Shown here piece by piece: positions 41,031 through 56,180 of a stretch of DNA of 56,180 bases (position 1 is its first letter; each line of letters opens with the position of its first letter). The stretch covers positions 1 through 56,180 of the forward strand of contig JAGNQV010000001.1 in NCBI GenBank assembly GCA_017988885.1, given 5' to 3'. Under the pieces are notes generated by a model. It made no database searches and was not told the DNA's origin. It saw only the letters and a list, made by a program, of their open reading frames with translations. The position numbers and the translations under genes are program-made. The stretch comes from Opitutaceae bacterium. Lineage in GTDB: Bacteria > Verrucomicrobiota > Verrucomicrobiia > Opitutales > Opitutaceae.

Positions 41031-41038
41031 AGAATGCT

Positions 41039-41659: not shown

Positions 41660-42680
41660 GCACGTTTGCAACCCTGACCGCGAAAGAGCGCGAACTGTTC
41701 TTCCGCCAGTATCAGGGAAAACGCGGCGTCGATCCCGTCATTGCGGAAAAGGATTTCTGGGTTTGCTGGTTGCTCGGCCGGATCTTCGAACAACCCCAAC
41801 TCACGGACGCGTGCGTGTTCAAAGGCGGCACCTCCCTTTCAAAAGTGTTCGGGGCCATCGAACGATTCTCCGAAGACCTCGACCTTGCCATCATTCCCGC
41901 CTCGCTCGGATGGAAAGAGTCCGACCTCGACCAAGCACCCTCACGCACCAAGCGGGAGGAGCGCATGGCCGAGTTGGAGGCGGCCTGTGCCGCTGCCGTG
42001 GAGGCGACGTGGCAGCCACAGCTGGAGGAATCCGTCCATGCGGTGCTTGGCGCGCCAACCGATCGCGCCCACTGATTGACGTATCGCTTCGACGAGGCCG
42101 CCCGCTCTCCGGTCATCTTCTTCGCGTATCCCGGCGCCCTGCCTCGCGGCGTCGCCTACATTGCCCGCGAGGTGAAGATCGAATTCGGATCCCTGACGGA
42201 CCAGCGTCCCATCGGACGCCATCCGATTCAGGCCTTCGTCGCCGAACTCGCCCCGGGAGCCTTCACCGACTTTCAAGCGGAGGTCGTCGCCTTGGAACTG
42301 GAGCGCACGTTTTGAGAGAAGGCCACGATCCTGCACGCCGAATTTCATCGCCCGGCCGACCGCCAGATGAGGGACCGGCATGCCCGGCACTATGCGGACT
42401 TCGTGGCGTTGTGGCGGCACGCACCGGCTCAGGCTGCGCGCAGTCGCCTCGATTTGTTGGAGCGGGTGCGCCTCCACAAATCCCGTTTCTTTCCTCCAGC
42501 TGGGCTAACTACGCTACTGCGGTCCCCGGTTCGCTACGCCTAGTGCCGCCCGCAGCACGGATCGACGCTCTGCGCGAAGATTACGAGGCGATGCAGCAGA
42601 TGTTCCTCGGCGAACGCATGCCGTTCGAAACGGTGCTCGCTGTTCTGCAGGAAGCCGAGGCCACGTTGAATCACTCCTGA
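41656..42680 (+). pseudogene. AbiEii/AbiGii nucleotidyltransferase toxin, disrupted (two in-frame TGA codons and one frameshift)
   Basis: KDFWVCWLLGRIF...VFKGGTSLSKVFGAIERFSEDLDL, then in-frame TGA at 42073-42075. IFFAYPG...VKIEFGS...LERTF, then in-frame TGA at 42313-42315. EKATILH...RHYADFVALW...HKSRFF, then the frame changes near 42484-42500 to SSWANYATAVPGSLRLVPP...LNHS, ending at 42680. Confidence 0.75.
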
Positions 42681-42729: not shown

Positions 42730-43656
42730 TTAGTCCGATTGGGCGATCATGAGGCCCGATCCACTGGCGTCCCGCACCACCATGCCACAACCAGAGCCGG
42801 AGGCATAGAGCCTCCGGACCACAGCACCCTGCAACTGGCGCTCCACCATCTTGCGCAGAGGACGTGCACCCAGTTGGGGGTGAAAACCCTCGCGCACTAG
42901 GAACTCCATCGCCTCGCGACTTATCTCCAAATCATAACCAACGCCGCACAGGCGGGATGTTTCCCGCCGCACTTCCAATTCACAGATTCGCCGCTGCGCA
43001 TCGGAAGTAAGTTTCTGGAAAACCAACACTTCATCCAACCGTCCGAATAACTCCGGGCGCAGACATTCCCGCAGCCGACGCAATACCGCCTGTTCAACTC
43101 GGGTGGCGCTAGAATGCGCCATCCGCATCGCCTCGGCGCCGCCAATGTTTGTCGCGAAACCGACGTAGTAATTGCCAAAATGAAACGTCTGTCCGGTCGC
43201 GACAGTCACCCGTCCATCCCACAGAATTTGCAAAAACACATCCAGAAGCGAAACCCAGGCTTTATCCATTTCGTCGAAGAACAAGGCCCCATCGGGATGG
43301 GCGATGAGTGCGCGGCCTAAAAGCCCGGGATCGTCGCGGCCTTGGCCGAGCAGCCGGTGCACCGCCAACTCGTCCTGATACTCCGACATATCGAAGGCCA
43401 CAAGTTTACCCGGTCCCAATGCGTATTCCACCGCACACTTAAAGGTTTCGGACTTACCGGAACCGGTGGGACCGGCAAACAGTAACGAGCCTCGCGGGCG
43501 CGCAGGATCAACGATGCCACATTCGCCACTACCAAAGACAGCCGCCACACGAGGCAGCAGGTGATCCTGCCCAATAATGCGGGAACGCAAGTGCGCCTCG
43601 AGACCGCGCAGCTGCTCGATACGTGCGGGATCAATCACGTTGCTTTTGCCTTCCAA
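42730..43656 (-). CDS. stand-alone AAA+ ATPase of the ClpA/ClpB second-nucleotide-binding-domain (AAA_2 + D2-small) type
   Basis: IIGQDHL...PRGSLLFAGPTGSGKSE (Walker A), AFDMSEY, ALFFDEMDKA (Walker B), LQILWDGRVT, and GARPLRKMVERQL (sensor-2 / D2-small). No N-domain, NBD1 or middle domain. Confidence 0.75.
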   Translation of the reverse strand: MEGKSNVIDPARIEQLRGLEAHLRSRIIGQDHLLPRVAAVFGSGECGIVDPARPRGSLLFAGPTGSGKSETFKCAVEYALGPGKLVAFDMSEYQDELAVHRLLGQGRDDPGLLGRALIAHPDGALFFDEMDKAWVSLLDVFLQILWDGRVTVATGQTFHFGNYYVGFATNIGGAEAMRMAHSSATRVEQAVLRRLRECLRPELFGRLDEVLVFQKLTSDAQRRICELEVRRETSRLCGVGYDLEISREAMEFLVREGFHPQLGARPLRKMVERQLQGAVVRRLYASGSGCGMVVRDASGSGLMIAQSD

Positions 43657-44102
43657 GTGCCGGCGACCTGCCAGCCGCGTGCCTTCGGCGGAAATTTATC
43701 CAAGAACGCCTGCACCTCGGACCCGATGGCTCCGCCGTTGCGGAGCGCCCGTAAAATCGCCCGCACCACAAACGCGCGCGTCGCAATCACACCGGCGTCC
43801 GCCAAGGCCACCACAACCGCGTCCAGCTTCCTGACCTGATCGCGTGGCAGATCGAGCGTCGGGTGACCAGTTATATTCCCGGACTCGCGGGGACCGTCCT
43901 TCTTTTCATAGGCCGCGTGAAGGAGAAGGGCATGCGCCTGCATTTCCACCGGCGAGGTCAGGTAAATCAGAGCGCGTAAAAAAGTGCCGGCGCGCACCTC
44001 GACCCCTGCCCGCTTCAATTCTGCGTTCCGCGCCTTCAAGGCAGTCATGTCCTCAGCGTAAAAGGAGAAACTCACCTTGATCGGTTTTGCACCTGAATTC
44101 AT
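43635..44102 (-). CDS. hypothetical DNA-binding protein with two ribbon-helix-helix-like units
   Basis: Two segments with an RHH beta-strand plus helix pattern (KVSFSFYAEDMTALKAR... and TLDLPRDQVRKLDAVVVALAD...). Divergent from the T4SS operon. Overlaps the AAA+ gene by 22 nt. Confidence 0.4.
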   Translation of the reverse strand: MNSGAKPIKVSFSFYAEDMTALKARNAELKRAGVEVRAGTFLRALIYLTSPVEMQAHALLLHAAYEKKDGPRESGNITGHPTLDLPRDQVRKLDAVVVALADAGVIATRAFVVRAILRALRNGGAIGSEVQAFLDKFPPKARGWQVAGTWKAKAT

Positions 44103-44168: not shown

Positions 44169-44477
44169 ATGATGATTTTCCCCCTGCTTCCTGCCCTCCG
44201 GGTCAAGGCCGCGATGCTGACCAAGGGCACGACCGTCCTGGCCCAGCTTCAGCAGCTGCGCGAAGGCTTCGGCAGTGCCCTCGTGCTGATCTTCATGGTC
44301 GGGTTTTTCTGGGGGATCATCAAAATCTGGTCCGGGGCCAACGCCATCAGCAAGGGCGATAGCGAAGGCAAGGGCGGGATCCTCGCCGGGATCATCATTG
44401 CGGCAGCTGCATCCATCATGGGAGCGCTCTTCGCCATCTTCGGCATGCAGGATGCGGTCGTAACCCCGCGGTTTTGA
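44169..44477 (+). CDS. TrbC/VirB2-like pilin candidate
   Basis: About 100 aa with two hydrophobic helices (ALVLIFMVGFFWGIIKIW and GILAGIIIAAAASIMGALFAIFG) separated by a short charged loop. First gene of the T4SS operon. Start could be an internal Met. Confidence 0.55.
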   Translation: MMIFPLLPALRVKAAMLTKGTTVLAQLQQLREGFGSALVLIFMVGFFWGIIKIWSGANAISKGDSEGKGGILAGIIIAAAASIMGALFAIFGMQDAVVTPRF

Positions 44478-44485
44478 GGAAAACC

Positions 44486-47401
44486 ATGAACGAACTGCGC
44501 TTCACCGACACCAACGCGGCCGATGACTCATCCGGCCGGGTTTTTGGCCTCGACGGTAATCTCTATCTGCCGCTGGTGATCGGGGCCGTGACGGCGATCG
44601 GGCTGTTTGCCGGTCTGGCGTTTCTCGGCGCAGGATATGGGACCGCAGCCTGGGGCGGAATTGCTCCCTTGGCCGGACTTTCCGTATGGGTTTTGGGATT
44701 CAGGCACGGCAAGCCACGCGGGTATGACCGCGACCGCTTAGATATGCTCATGGGCGGGAGTAACGGGTCGCCCGCTTCCGTTTCCGAGACGCACGGCAAG
44801 ACCCATGACGGACCACCCGATGGCCGATTCGTCCATGGCTTCATTCTTTTCGGGTCGCCCGAACGAGGCGGAGTCGCGGCCAAGGGCTTCAGGTTGGAAC
44901 CGCCGGACCTGCGTGGCGCGAGCATCACCCGGCTAAACGCCTTTCAGGATCAGGTGCGCGCACTGCTCGCCTTGGTCGGGCCGGGGCGGCGGGTGCAGTT
45001 CCAATGGTCTTGTGATTCGGACTACCGGGATGAATTGCTCCGCTACCATGAGCACACCCAGACGGCGTCCAATCCTGAGGTCCGGCGGGTGCGGAACGAA
45101 CGGTTCACCCGCTACTGGCAGCGCATGGCGGCACGGCAGCTGCGGCGCGAACGACTGACCCTGTTTCTCTCCATCGAAATCACCACCTACGCCGGCAACC
45201 TCCGCCTCCGCGACGGGCTCGAAGGCCACTACGAAATCCTGTTCCGCGAACTGGCGGCCCAATTCGAGGAATTCGCGACCACGCTGCGGAGCGTGTTCGG
45301 GTCCGAGACGGCCGTCACCCCGCTCGACGCGGCCGGGCATTGTGCCTGTCTGAGGCGATTCCTCAATCCGGGGCTCGCGGCGCAGACTCAGCATGATCGC
45401 GCTGACCAGTTCGACCCGAGCATGAGTGTGCAGGAGAACTGCTGGCACAGCGAAAGCCTCGGCCAAGCTGACGGTGGGTTTCATCTGGACGGCCACTATC
45501 ACGCGGTCCTCGCGCTGTCCCGCTGGCCGCAGCGGACTCGGCCCGGAATCGTCACGCATCTGACCGGCCTTCCGTTCTTGGACTACAGCCTCTCAGTCAA
45601 CGTCACCCCCGTCGCCACGCGGACCGAAATCGGCCGCGAGGAACGCGCGGCCGAACGCCTGCGCGGTGAATACTCCGAAAAGCCCCGCGCTTCCCTGCTC
45701 GTGGCACTCAGAAAAAAGGAGCGCAAAGTTGAGCAGTTGTCCGGCGGGTTCGCCCGGCCGTTTCATGTCACGTATCTGCTGCGGATGTGGGCGCCAACCA
45801 AGGAAGCGTTGCGCGAAAAAGTCGCAGCCGTGCAGGCCGCAATTCATGCGATGGACGGAGCGCAATACCTCGAATGTTCGTTGCCGACGACGGCACAGAA
45901 GTTGTTCTTCGCCTCATGGCCGGGCTGGACGCATTCCTCCTACCGGCACCGCGAGCTTTACGCCGAGGATGCGTATCTGGCGGACATGCTCCCGTTCTCG
46001 GCGACCTTCACCGGGGCGCTGACCGAGGCCGAGGCGCTTTACGATGGCAGCCACGGCAACCTGGTCGGCGTTTCAACGCAGGCCGGCGGTTCGCCGCAAC
46101 ATGCGGTGCTCTTTGGCATGACCGGCGCCGGCAAGTCCGCCTTCGTCGAGGATCTGCTTTGGCAGACTGCGGCGGACTTCGACTACACGTTGATTGCGGA
46201 GGAGGGATTTTCTTACAAACGGTTCACGGAGAGCATGGGTGAAACTCCGATCATCGTTCATCCCGATGCGGCCCTCACCCTTAACTATCTCGATACCCAG
46301 CGGCTGCCACTTTCGCAGCTCCATCTAGCAACGGCGGTCGCGTTGCTCGCCCGGATGGCGGGGCAACCGGATCGAGCCGAACAACTGGCCCTGCGACAGG
46401 CCCAGCTCACCCAATATCTCCACCAACTCTACCGTGATACCTATGTGGATTGGTCGCGGCGTCGGCCCGAAGCGGCCGAGCAGGCCCGGCGGCTCGCGTG
46501 TGCCACACACCAGTGGCGGAGCAAACTTCCGGCGGGAGCCACGCCGCTGGATATATATTGCGACCTGCGCGACCGGTTGGCTCGCAACGAGGATGAAGCA
46601 TCCGGTTTTGTCGCCGGATTATCCGAGGAAACCATCACGCGGTTCGCCCAGGCACCGGAGACGGAACGGCTCGTGGCCCATACCGCATGCGCCTTTTTCG
46701 CCCCGGAGGATTATCCGACGCACAGTGCATTGGTCGAACTGCTGGCCTACGGCCGGTTTCCAGAGCACAGCAAGGACGAGATCGACCGGCTCGCAACCTT
46801 GCTCCGCGCCTGGAGCGTCGAGGGCCAATACGGTCGGCTGTTCGACGGCGTGACCAACATTGCCCTGAACCGGCGGATTGCTCACTTCGAGTTGGGCTCA
46901 ATTCCCGAGCAGGCCGTCGAACTCAAGGCCGCCGTCGGGCTCCTCATCAGCGGGCTGGGCCGGCAGCACATCCTCGCCCTCCCCCGTGCTAGCAGAAAAC
47001 GCATCCTCTTCGAAGAACTGTCACGCTTCCTCGATACCCCGGGCGGCGAACAGATCGTGGCGGAAGGTTACGCCCAGTTGCGGAAACACAACTGCTGGTG
47101 CGCCTCGATCATCCAGCAGTATTCACGGTTCAAGACCTCGCGTATCCGCAGTGCGGTGATCGGCAACGCGAAGCAGTTCTTCTTCATGCGGCAGGCCGAC
47201 CGGGCTGATCTGGCCGACCTCGCCACGGATCTGCCGCTGCCAGAAACCGCGCTCGATGCCATCCAGCGGTATCCGTTGCCCGAGCAATTGCCCGACAATG
47301 GCCGGTATTCCTCGCTTTGTTATTTTGCGCCTACGACGCAACCGCCGCAATGCGGCACGATTCGCCACATCCAGCAAAAAAAGGAACGCCATGCGGCCTA
47401 G
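44486..47401 (+). CDS. virB4: VirB3-VirB4 (TrbD-TrbE) fusion, conjugal transfer ATPase
   Basis: GAGGA 5 nt before ATG 44486. N-terminal ~90 aa with two TM helices (VirB3-like). Walker A LFGMTGAGKS and Walker-B-like RILFEELSRFLD. About 970 aa. Confidence 0.8.
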   Translation: MNELRFTDTNAADDSSGRVFGLDGNLYLPLVIGAVTAIGLFAGLAFLGAGYGTAAWGGIAPLAGLSVWVLGFRHGKPRGYDRDRLDMLMGGSNGSPASVSETHGKTHDGPPDGRFVHGFILFGSPERGGVAAKGFRLEPPDLRGASITRLNAFQDQVRALLALVGPGRRVQFQWSCDSDYRDELLRYHEHTQTASNPEVRRVRNERFTRYWQRMAARQLRRERLTLFLSIEITTYAGNLRLRDGLEGHYEILFRELAAQFEEFATTLRSVFGSETAVTPLDAAGHCACLRRFLNPGLAAQTQHDRADQFDPSMSVQENCWHSESLGQADGGFHLDGHYHAVLALSRWPQRTRPGIVTHLTGLPFLDYSLSVNVTPVATRTEIGREERAAERLRGEYSEKPRASLLVALRKKERKVEQLSGGFARPFHVTYLLRMWAPTKEALREKVAAVQAAIHAMDGAQYLECSLPTTAQKLFFASWPGWTHSSYRHRELYAEDAYLADMLPFSATFTGALTEAEALYDGSHGNLVGVSTQAGGSPQHAVLFGMTGAGKSAFVEDLLWQTAADFDYTLIAEEGFSYKRFTESMGETPIIVHPDAALTLNYLDTQRLPLSQLHLATAVALLARMAGQPDRAEQLALRQAQLTQYLHQLYRDTYVDWSRRRPEAAEQARRLACATHQWRSKLPAGATPLDIYCDLRDRLARNEDEASGFVAGLSEETITRFAQAPETERLVAHTACAFFAPEDYPTHSALVELLAYGRFPEHSKDEIDRLATLLRAWSVEGQYGRLFDGVTNIALNRRIAHFELGSIPEQAVELKAAVGLLISGLGRQHILALPRASRKRILFEELSRFLDTPGGEQIVAEGYAQLRKHNCWCASIIQQYSRFKTSRIRSAVIGNAKQFFFMRQADRADLADLATDLPLPETALDAIQRYPLPEQLPDNGRYSSLCYFAPTTQPPQCGTIRHIQQKKERHAA

Positions 47402-47576
47402 CCTCCTCTTTTGCGCGCTGTTTTTGCTGGCCGGCTGTGCATCGCAAAAACGCGAACCGGATGCCGAGGCCCGCGCCTACGAGCGCGGCTACCGGCAGGC
47501 CCTGAAGGAGCAATACTGGATCATCCAAAACCAGCAGCGGACCGCCACGGCCGCGCCCAACCCGAAAACCCCATGA
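47391..47576 (+). CDS. small lipoprotein (VirB7-like candidate)
   Basis: MRPSLLFCALFLLAGC lipobox, 61 aa. Overlaps the VirB4 end. ATGA overlap with the next gene. Confidence 0.55.
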   Translation: MRPSLLFCALFLLAGCASQKREPDAEARAYERGYRQALKEQYWIIQNQQRTATAAPNPKTP

Positions 47577-48382
47577 AACACTTTATCCTATTTCTCCTGC
47601 TGTCCGTCCCGTTGTGCGCTCAACTCATCGTCAGCGATCCCATCAACACCGCGGTCAACTCCGCCGTGCAAGCCGGTCAGGCCGCCAACCACCTTGAAGT
47701 TCTCCGGCAGTGGTCCGCGCAGCTTGAAAACTTACACCGGCAGCTTCGTCAACTTGAGGAGCAGCTGGCCGTGCAGCGGCGCATCCGGGATGTCATTGGC
47801 GATCCCCAATCCGCCGGTGCGCAAATCCTGCTCCACGATTTGGGCATGGACAATCTCGCCCGCACGTATGGCGAGACGCTCCAATCCGCCCGCCAGTTGG
47901 CCAGCGCCATCGAGTCGCTCCGACGCACTTCCGATGGAATCTACCGGGAAATCGACGACCGCACCGTGCTGGGCCGCGAGTTCGCGCGCAATGAACCTCT
48001 CTACCGGCGTTATGCCGTGGTGGAACGACAGGCAGACAATCTGGCCGACGTGCACGCCGCGACCGCAACGCGCACCCAAGCCTTGCAGGCCGACCTTGCG
48101 CGCACGCTCGAACGGCTGCGGGCTGCAACCACCCAAGCCGAGACCGACAAATTGAATGCGACCATCGCCGCCCTCAACGGCCAGCTGGCCCACCTGGATG
48201 CGCAGCGGCGTAGCGAAACCGATAAACTCTGGGCCGCACATATCCTCAATGAAAACCAGGCTGCCAAGGAGCAGCAGGATTTGCTGGAGAAACAACAGGC
48301 CGAGGAGCGCGACTCCCTGGGCGCGTTCAATGCGTGGCAGCGTTCACTCGCCCTCACGCCCACCGACTACACCCGGCCATGA
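47573..48382 (+). CDS. TrbJ/VirB5-like protein
   Basis: Signal peptide MKHFILFLLLSVPLCAQ, then IVSDPINTAVNSAVQAGQAANHLEVLRQW..QLENL..QL.QLEEQL, the TrbJ/VirB5 N-terminal motif. Coiled-coil rich. Confidence 0.65.
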   Translation: MKHFILFLLLSVPLCAQLIVSDPINTAVNSAVQAGQAANHLEVLRQWSAQLENLHRQLRQLEEQLAVQRRIRDVIGDPQSAGAQILLHDLGMDNLARTYGETLQSARQLASAIESLRRTSDGIYREIDDRTVLGREFARNEPLYRRYAVVERQADNLADVHAATATRTQALQADLARTLERLRAATTQAETDKLNATIAALNGQLAHLDAQRRSETDKLWAAHILNENQAAKEQQDLLEKQQAEERDSLGAFNAWQRSLALTPTDYTRP

Positions 48383-48645
48383 GGCATCGGCGCATGTTTT
48401 CTCTTTTGCTCATCGCCGGGCTCGCCGTCTGCGGCTTGCTCGTTCGCCGCCACGTGGTGCGCCACGCTGTGCCCGCTCCACTGGAAGACACCGAAGCCCG
48501 CCAGTTACGGGCCATCAATGATTGGCAGCGCGGTCTTCGGCTCGATTCGCGCACCGACTATGGAAGGAAACCCGCCGATCTCGTCCCAATGGATAAACTG
48601 CAGAGGGAAGAACGCCGGCAGCGGCCGGAGGAGCAAAGAAACTGA
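48379..48645 (+). CDS. small membrane-anchored protein in the TrbK (entry-exclusion) position
   Basis: ATG 48379 with ATGA overlap. MFSLLLIAGLAVCGLLV hydrophobic N-terminus, 88 aa. Assignment is positional only. Confidence 0.4.
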   Translation: MRHRRMFSLLLIAGLAVCGLLVRRHVVRHAVPAPLEDTEARQLRAINDWQRGLRLDSRTDYGRKPADLVPMDKLQREERRQRPEEQRN

Positions 48646-49700
48646 TGGAAAACTTTGCCCCAGGTCTGCGCGAGGCCGTCCTCGGTCTCACCAACTCGCT
48701 CCGTGTGATCGTGTTTTTCGTCTGCGTGCTCGGCTTGATGCTGCACCTCCAGCAGGCGCGCGGTGACATCGAGAGCCTCACTCGGCCGCTGTTGCGCGCT
48801 ACCGTGATCGTAGCGTTGCTCGCCACCCTGCCGCATTGGTTCGGATTCACGGAACGAATCTTCCTGTCGATCGCCGATACGGTGCACGCGGGTTACACTC
48901 AGCATCCGATGGAGACCGCCGCAAAAATGCGGGCTGCGGTCGCCGACGGCGGGAGCGACTTCAGCCTGCGGCGGGTCGGGGAATCAGTCTATCAGGCGCT
49001 GTTGTGGGCAGCGGCCAAGCTCATCGTCCTGAACGCGAGCCTGCTGCAACTGCCGTTCCTGTTGCTCCAGTTCATCCTGAAACTGCTCTGCTACCTGTTC
49101 CTGCCCGTGGCGCTGGGTCTCTTCATGATTCCCGCACTGAGCCAATTAGCCACCCGCTACATCCAGCAGACGCTCGCCGTGCTGGCGTGGCCGGTCGGCT
49201 TCGCCGTGACCGAGTTGGTCGCCTATCACCTGCTCACCGCCTACCTGCAAAACCAAGCCGTCCTTTACGGGCTGCAACCGGGTGAAATCAACGCGGCCTC
49301 CTTTGCCAGCGTATTGGGCGCCTTGCTCGCCTCGCTGTGGCTTATCATCGGCACCATCGGAACACCGTTCCTCATGCAGGGATTGATCTGCTCGGGCGCA
49401 CCGATGTCGGGCGGCGGGCAGACGGCGATGCAGCAGCTCTACGCGGTTCAGCAAATCGCGTTCATGCTCAAATCCCTCAAGACCGCGGGGGCCGCTGCGC
49501 CGGTCATGGCCGCCCAAGCCACCTCGAAGGCGGGTGGTTCGATGCCACCACCCCCTCCACCTTCGCAGGCGTCTCCGCCGCCGCCGGGACCAGCCACTCC
49601 ACCTGCTGCACCAGCCGGCCACGCCGACCCAACCGGCGATCACACCGCCGCCGTCGCCATCTCCTCCTTCCAACTGCCCGTCGCCCAAAGGGGCATTTGA
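48645..49700 (+). CDS. TrbL/VirB6-like polytopic membrane protein with a proline-rich tail
   Basis: 5-6 TM helices, position after the TrbJ/K-like genes, C-terminal MPPPPPPSQASPPPPGPATPPAAPAG. Confidence 0.65.
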   Translation: MENFAPGLREAVLGLTNSLRVIVFFVCVLGLMLHLQQARGDIESLTRPLLRATVIVALLATLPHWFGFTERIFLSIADTVHAGYTQHPMETAAKMRAAVADGGSDFSLRRVGESVYQALLWAAAKLIVLNASLLQLPFLLLQFILKLLCYLFLPVALGLFMIPALSQLATRYIQQTLAVLAWPVGFAVTELVAYHLLTAYLQNQAVLYGLQPGEINAASFASVLGALLASLWLIIGTIGTPFLMQGLICSGAPMSGGGQTAMQQLYAVQQIAFMLKSLKTAGAAAPVMAAQATSKAGGSMPPPPPPSQASPPPPGPATPPAAPAGHADPTGDHTAAVAISSFQLPVAQRGI

Positions 49701-49711
49701 TCAGCCCAGCT

Positions 49712-50368
49712 ATGACGACTCTCCGTGAATCCTCCGTGCCGCATGCACGGCCAACACCAAGCCAGCGCGCGCGCCGGGCCTGGCACCCATTCGAATTCTT
49801 TGCCGACCACGCCTTGGCCGCGCGGTTGTGGTGTCTCGTTGCAGTGGTCGCCGTTGGGTTCTGCGCCGTGCAGCCCTTCCTCATCATCCGGGCCTACCGG
49901 ACGAAGGAACGGGTGGTCATTCTCGACGCGGCCGGAACGTTCCATGTCAGCCCACTCCTCGGTTTCGAGGAAGCGGCCAAACTGCACGAGCAACACGCCC
50001 TCCTCGCGTGTCTCGCGCTCTTCCAGCGCAATCCGGCAGGTTTCGATTTTCCCGAACTGCTCGACAAACTCTTTCTGCCGGAGGCGGCGCGCCAGGCTCG
50101 CGCCGGGGCCGCCACTGAGGCGGAGGAGTTCTCGGCCAAGGCGCTCCACCAGAAACCCGAAATCCTGAAACTGACCGTCTTGGAAACCCGCGAGCAGCTC
50201 GTGCTCGTGCAGGCCGAGGGTCAGCTGATCCGCACCGGGATCGTCAACGGGCAGACTTTTACCGAGGCCCCCGCCTTCACCGCGCGACTCACGTTCGCGC
50301 GCAACCCCAACCTGGCCGGCAGCGGCCGTTTTCCTCTCGCCGTATGGACCTACGAATTATCGCAATGA
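49712..50368 (+). CDS. TrbF/VirB8-like bitopic protein
   Basis: ATG 49712 in the frame of track ORF 49337..50368. One TM (LWCLVAVVAVGFCAVQPFLII) followed by a ~150-aa periplasmic domain. Synteny between the B6-like and B9-like genes. Confidence 0.55.
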   Translation: MTTLRESSVPHARPTPSQRARRAWHPFEFFADHALAARLWCLVAVVAVGFCAVQPFLIIRAYRTKERVVILDAAGTFHVSPLLGFEEAAKLHEQHALLACLALFQRNPAGFDFPELLDKLFLPEAARQARAGAATEAEEFSAKALHQKPEILKLTVLETREQLVLVQAEGQLIRTGIVNGQTFTEAPAFTARLTFARNPNLAGSGRFPLAVWTYELSQ

Positions 50369-51153
50369 TCATGCTGCAGGCGTTGCTGATCGCTGGGGTC
50401 GATGCCTCGCAGATCCGGGCCTATCCGCTCGACGATCGCAGCGTTTACACCATCCGGCTCGGCAAGGATGAGCCGACCACCTGTGTTTTTCCGGCCGCAA
50501 TCAAGGCGATGGTCGGCGCCAATGTTTCAACCAAGGCGGACGATGCCCCGGGCATCCTGTTGTCCCACGAACCGGGCACGGAATATTTTTCGTTACGGGC
50601 GCTCAAGGCGGACGCCACCGGAGCATTGAATGTGGTGCACCGGGGCCGGGTCTACGCCCTCGTGTTTATCACGGGCGACAATCCCGACCAGGCCGTCATA
50701 TTCCTGAACGAGCCGCTGGTCGGAGCCACCCGCGAACTGCCGGCCGCTGACACCTTGCGCGCCCTGCTGGAACGGGCGAAGCAACTGGACCGGTTGCAAA
50801 ATCAGTATCCCGGCATGGCCTCGAAGATTGATCGGGCGCAGCCCGGCACGGTCACTTACTACCGCGCCTTCACCGCCACGGTTGAGGACGTTGTGAGATT
50901 CGATGCCGAGGACGTGCTCGTGCTCCGCGTGCGGTTGGCAAACACGCTCGATGTGCCGGTGCCTTACGATCCGCAGGCGCTGGCCGTGCGCGTCGGCCAC
51001 GACGTTTACACCGCCGCGCTGACCGAAGCCTCGGGCTCAATTCCGCCGCAGTCGGCGACCCAGCTCTATCTGGTCATCGCGGGAATCCCCGGACGCGGAC
51101 GCGCCAACCTCTCCGTGCGTGAAATTTTTAACGTCATCGTGCCGCACCCATGA
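50344..51153 (+). CDS. TrbG/VirB9-like protein
   Basis: Signal peptide, then VYTIRLGKDEPTTCVFPAAIKAM...YFSLRALKADATGALNVV..GRVYALVF pattern of the VirB9/CagX N-domain. An alternative ATG at 50365 forms an ATGA overlap. Confidence 0.6.
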   Translation: MDLRIIAMIMLQALLIAGVDASQIRAYPLDDRSVYTIRLGKDEPTTCVFPAAIKAMVGANVSTKADDAPGILLSHEPGTEYFSLRALKADATGALNVVHRGRVYALVFITGDNPDQAVIFLNEPLVGATRELPAADTLRALLERAKQLDRLQNQYPGMASKIDRAQPGTVTYYRAFTATVEDVVRFDAEDVLVLRVRLANTLDVPVPYDPQALAVRVGHDVYTAALTEASGSIPPQSATQLYLVIAGIPGRGRANLSVREIFNVIVPHP

Positions 51154-52142
51154 CTTTCAACCGCGATTTTTTCACATCCCACACCGGACAGGTCGTGCTC
51201 GTGGCCGCCGTGCTGCTGCTCGGGATTCTCGCCGTGCGCTGGCAGAATGAAAAACGCACCCCTGTCCCGCTGCCGGCAGCGAAATCAGCGCCTTCGGTCG
51301 CCTTGCCCAAGACCCTCACGCGCGAGATAACGCGTTACAAGACCCCACCGCCAGTCCCGGCAAAAGCAGCCGCGCACGGAGTCACGTCCAGCCCACCGGC
51401 GGTCGCGACCATTCCTGCCACGCAAGCGCTGCCGCTGGCACTCTTAACCGCTGGCGCAGAGTCTTCGCCCGTGGCACCTCGCCCGCCGGTCGCACCCTTC
51501 GGTCGCTTGATCCCCTGCGAAACCGTGATCGCCTTGGAATCGAACCGACTGGAAACACCCGTCATCGGCCTAGTGACCCAAGATGTCTGGCATGATGGCC
51601 GCCTCATCATCCCGGCGGGAGCGGAAGTTCACGCCCGGGCCGCGCTCGACCGCACCCGGGAAAGGCTCGCCGTGCAGGGTCCGTGGAAAATTGTGTGGCG
51701 AACACCCGATGCCGATAATGGCGCGGAGCTTTCCGTCGATGGACTCGCCCTCGACCGTGACTATGCGGCTGACACGGGCACCTGGGGACCGAACGACGGT
51801 TCGGCCGGGTTGCGTGGGCAGATCGTCAAGGCGGACGACGACCGCGAATTAAAACTCTTGGCCGCCACGTTTCTCGGCTCGGCCACAGCCGCTTTGCAAG
51901 ACACCCGCCTGACGACCGGCCTTTTGGGCGAAGCCTCTCTGCCGACCGCCAGCGCCCGCAACGCGGCGCTCTCCGGCACGAGTGCCGTGCTGCGCGAGTA
52001 TGCCCAAGCCATGCGCGACTCAATTGCCCGTGACGGATTCTTCCTCCGCGTGCCCGCCGGCAAACCTTTTTACCTCTACGTGACGCAAACCCTCGATCTA
52101 GCCCAAGCCAGCCGGCCCGGCACCGCATCCTCCCGCCTATGA
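51150..52142 (+). CDS. virB10: TrbI/VirB10-like protein
   Basis: N-terminal TM, Pro-rich linker, and C-terminal block LIPCETVIALESNRLETPVIGLVTQDVW.DGRLIIPAGAEVHA...GLRGQI, typical of VirB10. ATGA overlaps on both sides. Confidence 0.7.
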   Translation: MTFNRDFFTSHTGQVVLVAAVLLLGILAVRWQNEKRTPVPLPAAKSAPSVALPKTLTREITRYKTPPPVPAKAAAHGVTSSPPAVATIPATQALPLALLTAGAESSPVAPRPPVAPFGRLIPCETVIALESNRLETPVIGLVTQDVWHDGRLIIPAGAEVHARAALDRTRERLAVQGPWKIVWRTPDADNGAELSVDGLALDRDYAADTGTWGPNDGSAGLRGQIVKADDDRELKLLAATFLGSATAALQDTRLTTGLLGEASLPTASARNAALSGTSAVLREYAQAMRDSIARDGFFLRVPAGKPFYLYVTQTLDLAQASRPGTASSRL

Positions 52143-52807
52143 AATTACTGCTCCCAGTTTTTATACTCGTGCTGTGCGGCTGTCGCACCGCCGCTCCGGT
52201 TGCACCGCTGCCGGTGCCGGCTTCGGTCAAGGCGATTCAACCACAACCGGTTCCGCCAAGCGTCCCTGCCGTGCCCACGCCGGTGACATCTACCTCACCC
52301 GACCCAAAGAGCCGCCAGCAGGCTCAGTTGATCGAGGCACTCATCAACCAAAACGATGCGCTCACCGCCCGACTGACTGCCTTGCGCGCAGCTCCCGCAA
52401 CAGCACCCGTCGCATCAGAAACGACGTCCGTCAAAATTCCGCCGTCGCCAGTAGTTCTCTTGACGGCCCCGGCCTTCACTGACGCCACGATCACACCCAA
52501 CGCGGACGGCGTGATCGATCTTGTCGCCGTGAAACAGGCCGGCGCGGTCGACGAGCCGGTGAATCCTTTCGCTGTGCGTGCAACCCACAGCGAAAGCGCC
52601 CGGGAGGTGTCGCTCGTGGTTGGCGGCATCATCATGGGCGCCGCTCCCTGCGCGATGGTGAACGAGCGACTCGTGCAAGTTGGCGACCCCATCGAACGCT
52701 TCGTCGTCGAGCAAATCGACGTGAGCGCCGTGATCGTCCGGTTCGGCGTGCACCGTCTCCGGCTGCCGGTCTCCACCGTGCCCACGCGGGTAAAACTGCT
52801 CCTCTGA
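52139..52807 (+). CDS. lipoprotein with a proline-rich linker and a GspB/PilP/GspC-HR-like C-terminal domain
   Basis: Lipobox LVLCGC. C-terminus NPF...SLVVGGIIMGAAPCAMVNERLVQVGDPIERFVVEQIDVSAVIVRFGVHRLRL matches the l.G.i....A.iN...v..GD.i.gf.V..I....V pattern of T2SS/T4P inner-membrane accessory proteins. Confidence 0.45.
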   Translation: MKLLLPVFILVLCGCRTAAPVAPLPVPASVKAIQPQPVPPSVPAVPTPVTSTSPDPKSRQQAQLIEALINQNDALTARLTALRAAPATAPVASETTSVKIPPSPVVLLTAPAFTDATITPNADGVIDLVAVKQAGAVDEPVNPFAVRATHSESAREVSLVVGGIIMGAAPCAMVNERLVQVGDPIERFVVEQIDVSAVIVRFGVHRLRLPVSTVPTRVKLLL

Positions 52808-52808
52808 C

Positions 52809-54011
52809 ATGCCTGAATTCGCCATCACGATTATTGACGGAGCAGGCCAGCGCCGTGCCCTGCGCGAATCCGCCGCGGACGAACCGGCCGTGCGGGCGCG
52901 GCTGCGGGCGCAGGGCTTTTGGCCAGTCAACGTCCAGCCCGCCCGGTCCAGTTCCAAGCTGTCACGCTTGAAAATTCCGATGCCGGAATTCCTGGCGTTC
53001 CTCCACCAATTGGAACTGCAACTGCGGGCGGGAGTGACGGCGGATGCCGCCATAGCGCAGCTCGCCGAGGACGTTCCGACCGGACCCATGCGCACGATGC
53101 TCGGGAAAATCCATGAAGACATCGCGCAAGGAATTCCCATCCATGCCGCTTGCCGGTTCTTCTCCCGCCAATTCCCACCGCACCTGGCGGCGGTGATCGC
53201 GGCCGGCGAAGCATCAGCCCGGTTACCCGAATCGCTAAAGGCCCTGGCGGCAAACCTGTCGAGTGCTGCCGAACTGAAGCGCACGGCGCGACGGGCCCTC
53301 ATTTATCCAGGCATCGTGCTCATCGCCACCACTGGACTCATCATCTTCCTGCTTGGCGGAGTCGTCCCACAATTTGCGGCCATCTTCGAGTCGCTGCACC
53401 TGCCGCTGCCCGGTCTTACCCTAGCTCTCATTCACGCCAGCGAAGCCGTGCGCGCCGGCTGGCCTGTCATGTTGGCCGGGATCTTCGCCGCTGGCATCGG
53501 GCTCTGGGTTGCAGCGCACACGCCGCGCCTCCGCTACTTTCGCGATGCGGCCCTCCTGCGGGTGCCCGTGATCGGTGAAACCATCCGGTGCATTGCGACC
53601 GCGCGTTTTGCCGCCCACTGCCGGCTCTTGCACGAAGCCGGCATCCCGATGCTGGAAGCACTTGAGACCGGCGCGGAATTGTCGAACCACGCCGTGCTTG
53701 CCCGGCAGTTGCTCGCCGCCCGTGAAGGAGTCGCCGCCGGCAAACCGCTCTACGCCGCGCTGCCGCACGGTCATGCCTTTCCGGGTTTCATCGTGCCCGC
53801 GCTTAAGGCCGGCGAGACCACCGGACAACTCGGCGCCGCCCTCCATCACATCGAGGACTATGCAGGCGAACGCGCCCGGGAACGGCTGGCCACCGCCCTG
53901 GCCCTGCTGGAGCCACTGCTCCTCGCCACCCTGACCGCAATTGTAGGCGGCATCGCCCTCTCCTTCTTCCTGCCGATTTTTTCGCTCCTCGGCGGCGCCA
54001 ACCACCACTGA
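52809..54011 (+). CDS. gspF: type II secretion / type IV pilus platform protein (GspF/PilC family, two T2SSF domains)
   Basis: N-terminal F.I...D..G......A.......L...G domain. The two T2SSF repeats end in AAGEASARLPESL and KAGETTGQLGAAL. C-terminal LLEPLLLATLTAIVGGIALSFFLPIFSL. Confidence 0.8.
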   Translation: MPEFAITIIDGAGQRRALRESAADEPAVRARLRAQGFWPVNVQPARSSSKLSRLKIPMPEFLAFLHQLELQLRAGVTADAAIAQLAEDVPTGPMRTMLGKIHEDIAQGIPIHAACRFFSRQFPPHLAAVIAAGEASARLPESLKALAANLSSAAELKRTARRALIYPGIVLIATTGLIIFLLGGVVPQFAAIFESLHLPLPGLTLALIHASEAVRAGWPVMLAGIFAAGIGLWVAAHTPRLRYFRDAALLRVPVIGETIRCIATARFAAHCRLLHEAGIPMLEALETGAELSNHAVLARQLLAAREGVAAGKPLYAALPHGHAFPGFIVPALKAGETTGQLGAALHHIEDYAGERARERLATALALLEPLLLATLTAIVGGIALSFFLPIFSLLGGANHH

Positions 54012-54014
54012 GCC

Positions 54015-54968
54015 ATGATTCTTTACCCTTTACTGCATCGCCCACGACTCCTGCGCGCCAATTTCGTCCGCGTGATGCACGGCTTCTCCCTCCTCGAAGT
54101 CGTGTTGGTCTTATTTGTCCTCGGCCTGCTGGCCACCGCTCTCGCCCCTTCTGTGCGCGACATCATCGAACGCGGCCGGCGCGAGGCGGAAGCCAGGTCG
54201 CTCGACGAACTGACCGCAAATATCACGGCGTCTTTCGAGCAGGCCGATCTGACGAACCTAAATCTTGCCGCACTCCCCGGCACGATTGGCCCAGGAGACA
54301 CGGCGACGGTATTCTCCACGTCCACCAGTGCCGGCTATGCGATCACCAATACGACCGACTGGTTTGCGAAGCTCGGACGGATGCGCGGAGTTACCCCGCA
54401 GATCGGCGCTGCACCCACGCCGACCATCCAGCCCGAACTGGCCCGGATTGCATTCAATGGACTCGGCAACCCGCGGCTCTTGATTGCCGGCCCAACCGAA
54501 TCCGGCCGGCAGCGCTTCCTACTCGTGAGCCTCATGGCCCGGAGCGACCAGCTTGTGCTGCCCGCCTACGAGAGCGGCGCGGCTTGGTTCGAGGCCCTTT
54601 GGCAAAATGATTGGGACAGCCGCACCGCGGTTCCTCCCACTTATTGGTCGGGTCGGCTCACCCTTGCTCAACTGGCGGCTTGGTCGGCCGGCTCCGCCGG
54701 AATGACGCAGGTCAGCCGGCTCGGTGTGCGCCGCATCGTTCTGCCCAAGTTTCGGCTGACGATAAACAACAACCATCCGTCAGAGGCCGCCTTCGCCACG
54801 TTCAACAACACGCCGAATGCGTTCAGCGCCCCGGCCAATTCCGGCGCCAACGTTTCACCCGAAATCCTCGGCGGCCGGCTCATCATCATTAACCGCGGAG
54901 CGGCTTGGCCCGGCGTCGAAGCCCTCCGGTTCGCCCTCCGCGAAAATCCCACCATCACCCTCCAATGA
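54015..54968 (+). CDS. prepilin-type N-terminal cleavage/methylation domain protein (large pseudopilin or minor-pilin-like)
   Basis: G|FSLLEVVLVLFVLGLLATALAP class III signal with Glu at +5. 317 aa, with no other recognisable domain. Confidence 0.75.
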   Translation: MILYPLLHRPRLLRANFVRVMHGFSLLEVVLVLFVLGLLATALAPSVRDIIERGRREAEARSLDELTANITASFEQADLTNLNLAALPGTIGPGDTATVFSTSTSAGYAITNTTDWFAKLGRMRGVTPQIGAAPTPTIQPELARIAFNGLGNPRLLIAGPTESGRQRFLLVSLMARSDQLVLPAYESGAAWFEALWQNDWDSRTAVPPTYWSGRLTLAQLAAWSAGSAGMTQVSRLGVRRIVLPKFRLTINNNHPSEAAFATFNNTPNAFSAPANSGANVSPEILGGRLIIINRGAAWPGVEALRFALRENPTITLQ

Positions 54969-56180
54969 AAATCCTCCTACCCTGCCTCCTTTTTTTCCTA
55001 GGCCTCGTCACTACGCGCGCGCAGATCACCGCCAGCTCCTACACCACGCAGACGGTCACGCTACCCGGCGACAGCTACACCCTCTATTTCGGAACCTTTT
55101 GGACCTGCACGGACTTTCCCGTCTCCAGCTCGCCGGGCCGAGTCGAACTGATCAACAGCCAAGGCAATCTAGTCGGCTGGGCCGAAGGCCACGTCGCTCA
55201 ATCCGGGGCCACCGGCCAAACCAACCTGGGTTCCGTCAGCGTCACAGCCAGCTCCATGAGCATCATGACCCCCGCGCTGACGGTCGCGGATGGATCGTTT
55301 TCTGGAATATGGAATATCACCGGAGTTTCACCCGGCACTTACACCCTCCGGTTTTGGGATTTCGAGAACCAGCCGGGTATGGTGTTCGTCGCCACCGTTT
55401 GGACGCGCACCTTGTTCCAAGGTGGATATGCTCCGCCGCCATTACAATACACGCTCACGACGAGTGCCGGAAGCGGGGGCAGCGTGTCGCCGGGCGGGGT
55501 CTTCAATCCCGGCACCACCGTCGCGGTCACCGCCACGCCGGATGCGCTGCATGATTTTGCGGGCTGGAACGGCGATGCCGGCGGCTCCACTAATCCGATC
55601 AGTGTTATGATCGATCGGGACAAGGCCGTGCAGGCGCTCTTTTCCCTAAAAAACTTCACCCTCACCACGAGCGCCAGCGGTGGCAGCGTAACGTCCGGTG
55701 GCACATACCCCTATGGGACCACGCTCACGCTTTCTGCCACGCCTGATTCGACCCATCGCTTCGTCGGCTGGACCGGCGATGCCAGCGGTTCCGCCCCTTC
55801 GGTCTCAATCACCATGAACAGCGCGAAGTCGGTGCAGGCCGTGTTCGTCGCCAAAAGCGCGCAGGCCATCACCTTTGACGCCCCAGCGACCCAGAATGTC
55901 GGCGCCAGTTTTCCACTCGTCGCCACCGCGTCCTCCGGTCTGCCCATCACCTTCACGGTGGTCAGCGGCCCCGCCACATTTAGCGGCGGCACTCTCACGA
56001 TCACCGGTCCCGGCATCGTCACGTTGGAGGCCTCCCAGCCGGGCGATGGATTCTACCTCGCGGCTCCACCGGTGACCCGGGCGCTCAGCGCCGCCGCTCC
56101 CGCCCTCCTCAAATACACGGCCGGCGCGCGGACCCTGCTCCAGACCGGCCGCACCCCGGAATCCATCCCCTACGTCATCC
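54965..56180 (+). CDS. secreted repeat protein (partial, runs off the window): two tandem InlB-B-repeat-like domains plus an Ig-like domain
   Basis: Not in the supplied track. I translated from ATG 54965 (ATGA overlap with the pseudopilin stop) and found 405 codons with no stop to the window end. Signal peptide MKILLPCLLFFLGLVTTRAQ. Repeats YTLTTSAGSGGSVSPGG...FAGWNGDAGG... and FTLTTSASGGSVTSGG...FVGWTGDASG.... Confidence 0.75.
   Translation, partial: MKILLPCLLFFLGLVTTRAQITASSYTTQTVTLPGDSYTLYFGTFWTCTDFPVSSSPGRVELINSQGNLVGWAEGHVAQSGATGQTNLGSVSVTASSMSIMTPALTVADGSFSGIWNITGVSPGTYTLRFWDFENQPGMVFVATVWTRTLFQGGYAPPPLQYTLTTSAGSGGSVSPGGVFNPGTTVAVTATPDALHDFAGWNGDAGGSTNPISVMIDRDKAVQALFSLKNFTLTTSASGGSVTSGGTYPYGTTLTLSATPDSTHRFVGWTGDASGSAPSVSITMNSAKSVQAVFVAKSAQAITFDAPATQNVGASFPLVATASSGLPITFTVVSGPATFSGGTLTITGPGIVTLEASQPGDGFYLAAPPVTRALSAAAPALLKYTAGARTLLQTGRTPESIPYVI
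55448..55855 (+). repeat. tandem duplication of a ~68-aa InlB-B-repeat-like module (aa 162-229 and 231-297 of the partial ORF)
   Basis: By-eye alignment of the two translated segments: shared TLTTSA.GGSV..GG....GTT..L.ATPD..H.F.GW.GDA.GS......M...K.VQA.F. Confidence 0.7.

Follow-up and report, generated by a model that had tools for sequence, protein, structure and literature searches.

A type IV filament gene module coupled to the mating-pair-formation genes of a conjugative element in Verrucomicrobiota

The 56,180-nucleotide stretch of Opitutaceae DNA analysed here (the window) ends with four genes that resemble parts of type II secretion systems (T2SSs) and type IV pili, and that follow directly on a type IV secretion system (T4SS) operon. 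They were originally read as a minimal platform, pseudopilin and adhesin set that could share parts of the T4SS envelope complex, which raises the questions of whether the coupling is real and what machine these genes belong to. All four ORFs lie where they had been placed, and profile matches in Pfam and TIGRFAM bear out the T2SSF, prepilin and InlB-repeat assignments. We find that the region from 52139 to 56180 covers the opening third of a complete type IV filament (TFF) gene module and that its coupling to the T4SS is real. Mobile Verrucomicrobia elements carry this pilus- or secretion-type machine in one tight gene string with their DNA-transfer apparatus. Judged from genomic context, the module is most likely a mating-pair adhesion or adhesin-export device.

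The host element and its T4SS genes

Near the start of the window, the forward strand encodes a ParA/MipZ-like ATPase (624-1331; Pfam MipZ, 5e-6) and a VirD4/TraG-like type IV coupling protein (T4CP; 1798-3270), the latter recognized by TrwB_AAD_bind (1.5e-10), TraG-D_C and T4SS-DNA_transf. The ParA/MipZ-like gene and the ORF after it (1166-1801) are always upstream of the T4CP in about 28 metagenome loci, and a distance of 1.5-5 kb separates the T4CP gene from the T4SS operon in relatives. One relative (L024) encodes a MOBF-type TrwC relaxase-helicase (1.8e-73) beside the same ParA-T4CP block. The T4CP in the window and this relaxase mark the host as a conjugative element of Verrucomicrobiota. 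It is integrated in chromosomes, and a distant form occurs on a plasmid.

Divergent to the T4SS operon, on the reverse strand, is a gene for a stand-alone ClpB-D2-like AAA+ ATPase (42730-43656; AAA_2 5e-23, ClpB_D2-small 2e-12) that is found at every related locus. The adjoining reverse-strand ORF (43635-44102; 155 aa) is conserved in relatives and has no Pfam match. The operon itself, on the forward strand, begins with a small protein with two hydrophobic segments (44169-44477), which lacks a Pfam match and is possibly a VirB2-like pilin. Next is a VirB4-family ATPase with a VirB3-like N-terminal membrane extension (44474-47401); the subclade of strain TAV5 and locus L105 has a separate 107-113-aa gene followed by a VirB4 of 869-873 aa. 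The ATPase matches TIGR02746 (TraC-F; 1.9e-27) and TIGR00929 (VirB4; 4.7e-18), both far under cut-off. The description of the T4SS as Trb-type was not upheld, as TrbE models gave at most 31 bits and F-type TraC 95 bits, all far under their cut-offs.

A 61-aa lipoprotein (47391-47576), whose lipobox is seen in orthologue sequence, overlaps the VirB4 gene by 11 nt in six of seven measured loci and by 19 nt in L009, and may be VirB7-like. It is followed by a conserved 269-aa secreted coiled-coil component (47573-48382; 63-79% identity, no Pfam match), an 88-aa membrane protein of conserved position (48379-48645) and a polytopic VirB6/TrbL-like membrane protein (48645-49700) that matches Pfam TrbL below the cut-off (E 5.6e-4). 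The VirB6/TrbL-like assignment is also marked weak in L004. A 218-aa bitopic protein (49712-50368; mean column identity 87%) and a 262-aa secreted protein (50365-51153; weak match to TIGR03749, 9e-4) have no sequence match in PDB and are possibly VirB8-like and VirB9-like, respectively. The last T4SS gene encodes VirB10/TrbI (51150-52142; Pfam TrbI 1.2e-15; 58 bits, cut-off 35). As originally noted, this T4SS has no VirB11/TrbB homologue, which is normal outside MPF-T systems (PMC4027160).

A filament module that continues past the window

The first gene of the TFF module, lipoB (52139-52807, forward; 222 aa), has an ATG that overlaps the TrbI stop as ATGA. Its product carries a lipobox (LVLCGC) and a C-terminal T2SSB domain of the GspB/GspC-HR/PilP type. 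Pfam T2SSB detects this domain weakly in the window copy, at an E of 0.0076 that falls short of the cut-off. Six of seven orthologues match it too (best E 1.7e-7), and at family level the assignment holds. The top PDB matches, GspB (4wfw) and GspC-HR (3oss), are weak. One nucleotide past the lipoB stop begins the gene for a 400-aa GspF/PilC-type inner-membrane platform (52809-54011, forward), with two T2SSF domains (E 2e-42) and 249 bits on TIGR02120 (GspF), under the equivalog cut-off of 424. It has more than 400 homologues, the best 120 of which are 64-94% identical and nearly all 400 aa long.

The 317-aa prepilin-type protein (54015-54968, forward) has a 23-residue leader (G|FSLLEV). It passes TIGR02532 (19.7, cut-off 16.3), and on Pfam N_methyl it scores 20.1 in the window and 22.5 in L001 (cut-off 21.2). 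Position -1 is G in 54 and A in 9 of 63 homologues, with F+1 and E+5 invariant. An AlphaFold2 model (pLDDT 83) predicts a long pilin alpha1 helix (residues 26-73) and a head domain for which no fold match was found in PDB. The prepilin stop is overlapped, again as ATGA, by the start of a gene for a secreted InlB-B-repeat protein with a signal peptide (54965-56180, forward; Flg_new_2, E 6e-27). This ORF reaches the window end about 4 codons short, and its C-terminus aligns to the orthologues' ...TPESIPYVIQPNP before their stop. The protein has conserved ends and a modular, length-variable middle, ranges from ~409 to ~1518 aa across loci, and its gene is among the least conserved of the string.

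No T2SSE ATPase, secretin or A24 peptidase was found among the ~60 ORFs scanned in the window. We compared 10 independent related Verrucomicrobiota loci (GspF 54-94% identical), all of which have the full string. In all ten, a secretin (Secretin_N_2 plus Secretin, the latter 2.5e-41; top curated model MshL, 204 bits) lies directly after the InlB-repeat gene position, and is followed by a GspE/PilB-type assembly ATPase. This ATPase matches T2SSE (7.5e-112), scores 441 bits on TIGR02533 (GspE), 406 on PilB and just 43 on VirB11, and has the CxxC...CxxC motif of assembly ATPases. A second, 251-aa prepilin, which passes TIGR02532, is present in all nine loci read far enough (L100 stops within the ATPase gene). 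It is 93-98% identical where GspF is 86-93%, and few proteins of the string are as conserved as the two prepilins. Mostly next are two bitopic membrane proteins and two small ORFs. The bitopic proteins (401 and 237 aa), for which PDB profile searches were empty, are possibly equivalents of GspL/M or PilM/N/O, as suggested by predicted topology.

Because the last ORF of the window ends ~4 codons before its stop and the secretin is next in every relative, the missing ATPase and secretin are an artefact of truncation. Their reported absence therefore holds within the window and fails as a trait of the system; the idea of a minimal set borrowing the T4SS envelope fails with it. As the string continues with the secretin and ATPase in 10/10 related loci, and with the second prepilin in the nine read far enough, the machine lacks no part but a prepilin peptidase. 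Neither this peptidase nor a retraction ATPase was found at the related loci.

The module thus comprises the T2SSB-domain lipoprotein, GspF platform, large prepilin, InlB-repeat exoprotein, secretin, assembly ATPase, second prepilin and two bitopic proteins. With the VirB4...VirB6...VirB10 mating-pair-formation genes it forms one overlap-coupled string of ~20 genes, in which all junctions are between -25 and +40 nt and gaps never exceed 40 nt. The predicted tight coupling to trbI is conserved, with a junction of -4 nt in 7/7 loci measured and overlapping called genes in the four other relatives. Promoter- and terminator-like sites in the string are no more frequent than expected by chance, and the window sequence has no break in GC content at the trbI/lipoprotein junction. 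A complete, independently promoted operon continuing downstream had been named as the finding that would reduce the arrangement to simple adjacency. A complete TFF set is indeed present downstream, but neither spacing nor a promoter of its own sets it apart, and the arrangement is therefore more than simple adjacency.

The cultured Opitutaceae strain TAV5 has a chromosomal copy, which keeps the TFF genes and lacks the InlB-repeat gene, and a distant, rearranged copy on plasmid CP007054 (MOBF; identities VirB4 30%, GspE 41%, secretin 33%, GspF 24%). The plasmid retains the T4SS-TFF linkage: on one strand with its T4SS genes, and downstream of them, lie an InlB/PKD protein, secretin, GspE-like ATPase and pilin, along with a lipoB-like protein and, in last place, GspF. 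One MAG holds two copies of the module, and genes on the downstream side of the block vary between loci.

Relation to known filament systems

Among known systems, the conjugative type IVb pili of R64 (IncI1), TP114 (IncI2) and the PAPI-1 ICE (pilL-pilV clusters) come closest as analogues; there too, the conjugative element encodes its own TFF machine, with a secretin, PilB-type ATPase, PilC-type platform, lipoprotein and few pilins. These pili bind recipient surface structures and stabilize mating pairs through variable adhesins (PMC9045228, PMC5297154), and the module here similarly pairs two pilin-like genes with a variable adhesin-like protein. It belongs to a different, T2SS/MSH-like TFF lineage; the PilN model gives its secretin 104 bits (cut-off 288) and MshL 204, and the GspF matches listed in PLSDB are T2SS GspF or HofC. 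It also lacks the PilU peptidase, PilT transglycosylase and shufflon-bearing PilV of R64-type pili, and its variability resides instead in the non-pilin InlB-repeat protein. R64-type pili are encoded in a separate pil operon (PMC6232867) of Proteobacteria, whereas this module lies in the mating-pair-formation operon of Verrucomicrobiota.

MshL is the best-scoring secretin model, although its score of 204.5 is below the cut-off (250.2). The loci of MSH (mannose-sensitive hemagglutinin) pili are likewise reported to be single and to lack a prepilin peptidase (PMC6668835), and that survey did not report MSH from Verrucomicrobia. A fused PilM/N-like (MshI-like) protein is one possible identity for the 401-aa bitopic protein. 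MshM and MshN homologues were not seen at the module loci, which have far fewer pilins than MSH. In gene content the module also resembles, by description, the type IVb operons for TCP and CFA-III. In these operons, a soluble Sec-dependent protein (TcpF, CofJ) accompanies a major and one large minor pilin, and PilT is absent; the products are virulence pili, encoded outside conjugation operons. No sequence or fold similarity to them was detected, the 317-aa pilin head being without a PDB match.

Proposed function and alternatives

We consider it probable, on contextual grounds, that the module is co-expressed with the T4SS and that a pilus or pseudopilus, with the InlB-repeat protein, stabilizes mating pairs. 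After maturation by a host prepilin peptidase, the 251-aa pilin would assemble into a short pilus or pseudopilus, with the 317-aa pilin as its primer or tip. The structure would cross the module's own secretin and present or export the variable InlB-repeat protein, so that donors bind recipients. The signal peptide, conserved ends and modular middle of that protein support adhesin-like behavior, and conjugative type IV pili have the corresponding role (PMC9045228, PMC5297154), which would here be served by a different TFF lineage. The strong conservation of the prepilins would sit better with a buried T2SS pseudopilin and counts against an exposed pilus. The lack of a retraction ATPase and a prepilin peptidase at the locus was also counted against the proposed function.

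A dedicated T2SS-like exporter is unlikely. In such an exporter, a periplasmic pseudopilus would act as a piston and force the InlB-repeat protein, exported by Sec, or some other exoprotein of the element out through the secretin, and no surface fiber would be made. Among curated models, GspE and GspF score best, ahead of PilB and PilC, the nearest plasmid homologues among the matches listed are T2SS GspF (at most 33% identity), and the secretin, the secretin-associated T2SSB/GspC-HR-like lipoprotein domain, the highly conserved pilins, the embedded Sec-dependent exoprotein gene and the absence of a PilT-type ATPase all fit. Every Gsp score is nevertheless far under its equivalog cut-off. The two pilin-like genes do not amount to a GspH-K set, the 23-residue leader and 251- and 317-aa sizes are unlike GspG, and recognizable GspC/L/M and a peptidase are absent. 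The ATPase lacks the N1E domain, its alignment starting at GspE residue 104. The TAV5 chromosome retains the TFF genes without the InlB-repeat gene, so the machine must serve more than that protein alone, which counts against this reading and also against the proposed function.

It is highly improbable that TFF and T4SS parts form a physically chimeric trans-envelope apparatus, sharing a channel or energizing complex for DNA or protein transfer. Conserved translational coupling, parallel divergence of both halves on the TAV5 plasmid and several T4SS outer-membrane components unrecognizable by sequence would suit such a device. Its premise of a missing ATPase and secretin is false, however; the TFF set is self-sufficient bar the peptidase, a VirB10 and candidate VirB7- and VirB9-like proteins belong to the T4SS itself, and the TAV5 plasmid has the TFF genes in another order, with other genes between them and the T4SS genes. 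We give hardly any credence to an ordinary host T2SS or pilus operon that merely neighbors the T4SS and is functionally unlinked. Although its complete gene set could work alone, the junction occurs in all ten relatives, the genes downstream of the block differ between loci, and the T4CP/relaxase element brings the module with it into different genomes, twice within one MAG and on both chromosome and plasmid in TAV5.

Many bacteria take up DNA through TFF machines that have a secretin and a PilB-type ATPase. An element-borne pilus for DNA uptake (competence-type) or release is nonetheless the least credible reading, as the locus has no ComEA, ComEC or DprA genes or retraction ATPase, and the ComG models, which do match weakly, score well under the Gsp and Pil models.

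Filament genes within and beyond the window edge

The right edge of the window cuts through a co-directional string of about 20 genes that joins a T4SS to a type IV filament (TFF) module. In the window, the filament section follows a TrbI/VirB10 gene (51150-52142, plus strand; Pfam TrbI, 58 bits, above the cut-off) and consists of four plus-strand ORFs, which ORF calls and profile searches place where the original prediction had put them. The first encodes a 222-aa lipoprotein (52139-52807), and its ATG overlaps the TGA of TrbI. Starting 1 nt after it is a gene for a 400-aa GspF-like protein with two T2SSF domains (PF00482 twice, E 2.2e-42), which scores highest, among curated models, on GspF (249 bits, under the equivalog cut-off of 424). 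A 317-aa prepilin (pilin317; 54015-54968), with a 23-residue leader and the motif G|FSLLEV, begins 3 nt after the GspF-like gene, and its stop overlaps the start (ATGA) of a gene for an InlB-B-repeat protein with a signal peptide (Flg_new_2, E 6e-27). This last ORF runs to the window end, about 4 codons short of a stop, and its C-terminus (...TPESIPYVI) aligns with the ...TPESIPYVIQPNP that precedes the stop in orthologues.

For the lipoprotein, T2SSB is weakly matched by the copy in the window (E 0.0076) and matched again by six of seven orthologues (best E 1.7e-7). The two top hits of a PDB sequence search with this protein were GspB and the GspC HR domain, both non-significant, and its AF2 single-sequence model (pLDDT 45) was left unused. 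Both prepilins of the string score above the TIGR02532 cut-off in profile searches, and in 63 prepilin homologues the residue at -1 is either G or A, with F+1 and E+5 invariant. The predicted T2SSB and prepilin identities, the two weaker assignments, hold up once relatives are added. The AlphaFold (AF2) model of pilin317 (pLDDT 83) comprises a long alpha1 helix (residues 26-73) and a beta-rich globular head, which is modelled confidently (pLDDT ~90 across residues 110-260). Foldseek comparison of this model with the PDB returned no significant structural neighbour (best E 0.1), so the head is not classifiable as T4a, T4b or GspK-like; its fold may be new among pilin heads.

More than 400 homologues of the window GspF were found (E <= 0.001), the best 120 of which are 64-94% identical and almost all 400 aa long; named sources among these are Opitutaceae, Lacunisphaera, Pedosphaera and other Verrucomicrobiota. 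An exact-sequence look-up of the window GspF found no record. We read ten independent related loci (L001, L004, L005, L006, L008, L009, L100, L103, L104 and L105), and the co-directional string is common to all of them. Its T4SS section encodes, in order, a small hydrophobic protein, VirB4 (with a VirB3-like segment fused or preceding), a small lipoprotein, a 269-aa protein, a ~90-aa protein, a VirB6/TrbL-like protein, 218-aa and 262-aa proteins, and TrbI. The T2SSB-domain lipoprotein, GspF, ~317-aa pilin and InlB-repeat protein follow and, beyond the position of the window edge, a secretin, an ATPase, a ~251-aa pilin (pilin251), bitopic proteins of ~400 and ~237 aa, and two small ORFs. The final genes are different, or missing by the locus end, in some loci. 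A PDB profile search with the 401-aa protein gave no significant match, so a GspL/M role for it is only putative.

The original prediction held that the secretin and assembly ATPase were missing from the window, and saw in the four genes a minimal filament set that could share parts of the T4SS. In the relatives, however, both genes lie directly beyond the window end. The secretin, present in all ten loci, matches PF00263 (Secretin, E 2.5e-41) and PF07655 (Secretin_N_2) in L001, and its best curated model is MshL. A 399-aa GspE/PilB-family assembly ATPase is likewise encoded past the edge in 10/10 relatives; in L001 it matches T2SSE (7.5e-112) and TIGR02533 (441 bits) and has a tetracysteine motif. 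It aligns from GspE residue 104 and therefore lacks the N1 domain. The TFF set is therefore complete save for a prepilin peptidase, and the minimal, parts-sharing picture arose from the window edge. An A24 prepilin peptidase was found neither among the window ORFs scanned nor within 10 kb on either side in L001, L004, L100 and L103-L105, and presumably comes from the host.

The conjugative element carries a complete TFF gene set co-linear with, and coupled by overlaps to, its mating-pair formation (MPF) genes, and the clade conserves this layout. Across seven measured loci, each of the 19 string junctions falls within -25 to +40 nt. The junction between TrbI and the lipoprotein is -4 nt in every case, and the largest gap (~39 nt), located in the TFF part, separates the ATPase from the second pilin. 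GC content is unbroken across the TrbI/lipoprotein junction. A promoter and terminator scan gave results at chance level, which carry little weight because the model is calibrated on sigma-70.

The chromosome of the cultured Opitutaceae strain TAV5 (L100, CP007053, at about 5.19-5.22 Mb) has a close copy in the window gene order (VirB4 70% identical), without the InlB-repeat gene. Two diverged copies of the whole T4SS and TFF string occur in the Verrucomicrobiota MAG JBMOQY01, on contigs 24 and 45 (L005 and L103), with GspF 83% and 71% identical to that of the window. The 99.8-kb TAV5 plasmid, typed MOBF, encodes a VirB4 only 30% and a GspF only 24% identical to those of the window. Downstream of its T4SS genes, on the same strand, are genes for an InlB/PKD protein, an additional ATPase of the T2SSE family, a secretin with Secretin_N_2, GspE at full length and a pilin, with a lipoprotein resembling that of the window, and GspF, placed last. 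The T4SS-TFF linkage survives this deep divergence.

Also present in the plasmid copy (L098/L099, CP007054) are genes for an OMP beta-barrel protein and a MuF_C-domain protein, and its secretin and GspE ORFs are absent from the PLSDB gene table. A deletion variant in another locus (L023, 15544-18337) joins the string's first gene almost directly to the 401-aa protein, with VirB4 through the second pilin lost, and is probably a decaying copy.

Affinities of the filament module

Among the defining features of the TFF superfamily, the module has the platform, the assembly ATPase, subunits with class III signal peptides and the secretin, and lacks the A24 peptidase. As judged from sequence, its lineage is closest to the T2SS/MSH/T4aP side. 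Relative to a canonical T2SS, its proteins score under equivalog level (GspF 249 versus 424, GspE 441 versus 630, GspD 154 versus 351, GspG 24-29 versus 89), and it has only two pilin genes, whereas a canonical T2SS needs the minor pseudopilins GspH-K and GspC/L/M. The MSH pilus provides the best secretin model, MshL, yet at 204.5 against a cut-off of 250.2. Module and MSH have in common a single locus and the lack of a peptidase, MSH loci having been reported without one (PMC6668835). MshM and MshN were not found with Pfam or NCBIfam.

The distance to the R64/PAPI-1 T4bP pili is seen in the secretin, which scores 104 against a cut-off of 288 on the PilN model TIGR02520. The PilU-type peptidase, transglycosylase and shufflon of R64-type pili are all absent from the module, which has two large prepilins and a non-pilin repeat protein. 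Among the PLSDB matches listed for the GspF query, all are T2SS GspF or HofC and none exceeds 33% identity. The module genes lie inside the MPF operon, whereas R64-type pil genes form a separate operon (PMC6232867), a comparison based on published descriptions of IncI pil organisation. The hosts also differ, being Verrucomicrobiota here and Proteobacteria for R64-type conjugative pili.

To our knowledge, all conjugative type IV pili known so far belong to R64-type T4bP clusters of Proteobacteria, which form operons of their own, and conjugation in Verrucomicrobiota has hardly been studied. Full-text queries of the library searched yielded no account of a Verrucomicrobia T4SS and T4P/T2SS fusion. 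The T4SS-TFF arrangement is real, widespread and undescribed, is abundant in environmental Verrucomicrobiota, and is less radical than the minimal hybrid first proposed. It is of a known kind, that of conjugative elements encoding their own type IV pilus, and differs in lineage, composition, organisation and host phylum. It adds a second recruitment of a TFF machine by mobile elements, from a different lineage and fused into the MPF operon.

The nearest TFF relatives outside the Verrucomicrobiota clade, in a genome scan, are three Planctomycetota MAG loci (L010-L012) with adjacent genes for GspE (42% identical), GspF (27-29%) and a pilin251-like protein (25-26%). Two of them (L010 and L012) were checked and have no further string genes. 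These loci could represent the chromosomal source lineage of the module.

Proposed function and alternatives

We propose that the TFF module is transcribed together with the T4SS, that its prepilins are processed by a host peptidase, and that a filament built from the two prepilins would pass through the module's own secretin. The InlB-repeat protein would be presented or exported, allowing the donor to bind recipients. The precedent is provided by the type IV pili of TP114, R64 and PAPI-1, which bind recipients and stabilise mating pairs (PMC9045228, PMC5297154). The InlB-repeat protein has a Sec signal, conserved termini and a modular middle that yields lengths of ~409, 525, 621, 717-719, 980 and ~1518 aa, and its gene is among the least conserved of the string; these features support a putative adhesin role. 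It is an accessory and not the machine's raison d'etre, because the machine is retained on the TAV5 chromosome although this gene is missing there.

The module could instead be a T2SS-like exporter with a periplasmic pseudopilus only. GspE and GspF as best models, the absence of a PilT-type ATPase, and the conservation of pilin251, which is like that of the ATPase (93-98% identity where GspF has 86-93%), point in this direction, and we regard this main rival as rather unlikely. We give very little credence to the idea that the T4SS and TFF module form one integrated apparatus and not two co-expressed machines. The secretin might, for instance, be anchored to the VirB10 core by the T2SSB-domain lipoprotein, or T4SS-driven DNA transfer might use the pseudopilus and secretin as its outer-membrane passage or as a structure that penetrates the recipient. 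If real, such an apparatus would define a new type of conjugation machinery, confined to Verrucomicrobiota and possibly the wider PVC group. A chimeric, parts-sharing apparatus loses its main argument because neither half is without core parts.

If a filament that helps donors bind recipients were confirmed, it would be a second, independent example of pilus-assisted mating, and the modular InlB-repeat protein would offer a handle on recipient specificity. The system would then also be open to study in a tractable model, since TAV5 is cultured and has two versions of it.

The host element and its other genes

The window encodes a type IV coupling protein (T4CP) at 1798-3270, with a ParA-like gene upstream. 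This ParA-ORF-T4CP block recurs in ~28 metagenomic relatives. An AraC-type regulator usually lies a few kb downstream of it, followed, where the flank is long enough, by a divergent ClpB-D2-like AAA+ gene and the T4SS string. One relative (L024) has a TrwC relaxase-helicase (1.8e-73) ~600 bp upstream of the block; the relaxase of the window's own element lies outside the window. The T4CP/ParA block, this relaxase and the MOBF plasmid therefore identify the unit as a MOBF conjugative element, known both integrated in chromosomes and on a plasmid. Given its T4CP, relaxase and VirB4 context, a prophage or other element was rejected.

The VirB4-family ATPase best matches TIGR02746 (F-type TraC; 1.9e-27, 95 bits), followed by TIGR00929 (4.7e-18), far under the curated cut-offs, and therefore represents a divergent clade. 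The T4SS had been described as Trb-type, a label that does not fit: no TrbE model scores above 31 bits, where the cut-offs are 810-1322, and matches to the Trb set are limited to TrbI (VirB10), which is generic, and a weak one to TrbL (VirB6). The predicted lack of a VirB11/TrbB ATPase was confirmed by profile searches, and VirB11 is usually absent outside MPF-T (PMC4027160). The 399-aa ATPase was rejected as the missing VirB11, with 42-43 bits on VirB11/TrbB models versus 441 on GspE. Several T4SS components have no recognisable family in Pfam or PDB profile searches, and the accessory genes match no described family. PDB profile searches with the 262-aa and 218-aa proteins gave no significant match, so VirB9 and VirB8 roles, respectively, are only tentative. 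A VirB4 90% identical to that of the window (P0134) is labelled Nitrospira sp. in NCBI, and reflects either a mis-binned contig or transfer beyond Verrucomicrobiota.

Divergently upstream of the T4SS operon, in the window (42730-44102, minus strand) and in every related locus, is the gene for a stand-alone, 308-aa ClpB-D2-like AAA+ ATPase, usually adjoined by a conserved ~155-aa ORF. The ATPase could serve the transfer apparatus as a chaperone or unfoldase. The region 41012-42680 contains a DUF6088/AbiEi-antitoxin-like gene (E 9e-42) that overlaps an ORF of 385 aa without a family match; together they could form a toxin-antitoxin or abortive-infection pair carried by the element.

In the window, the T4CP is separated from the AraC/ClpB-D2/T4SS block by ~31 kb of polysaccharide/O-antigen-type biosynthesis genes (3343-36352), among them Wzy_C, flippases, glycosyltransferases, DegT aminotransferases, GDP-mannose dehydratases and a CDP-glycerol transferase; an integrase-like/HTH ORF of 591 aa comes after them. 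The GC content of this stretch is mostly 50-57% (61-66% at 14-18 kb), against 57-65% in the transfer genes from 36 kb on. As the T4CP and T4SS blocks are only 1.5-5 kb apart in relatives, the polysaccharide genes look like cargo inserted within the transfer region.
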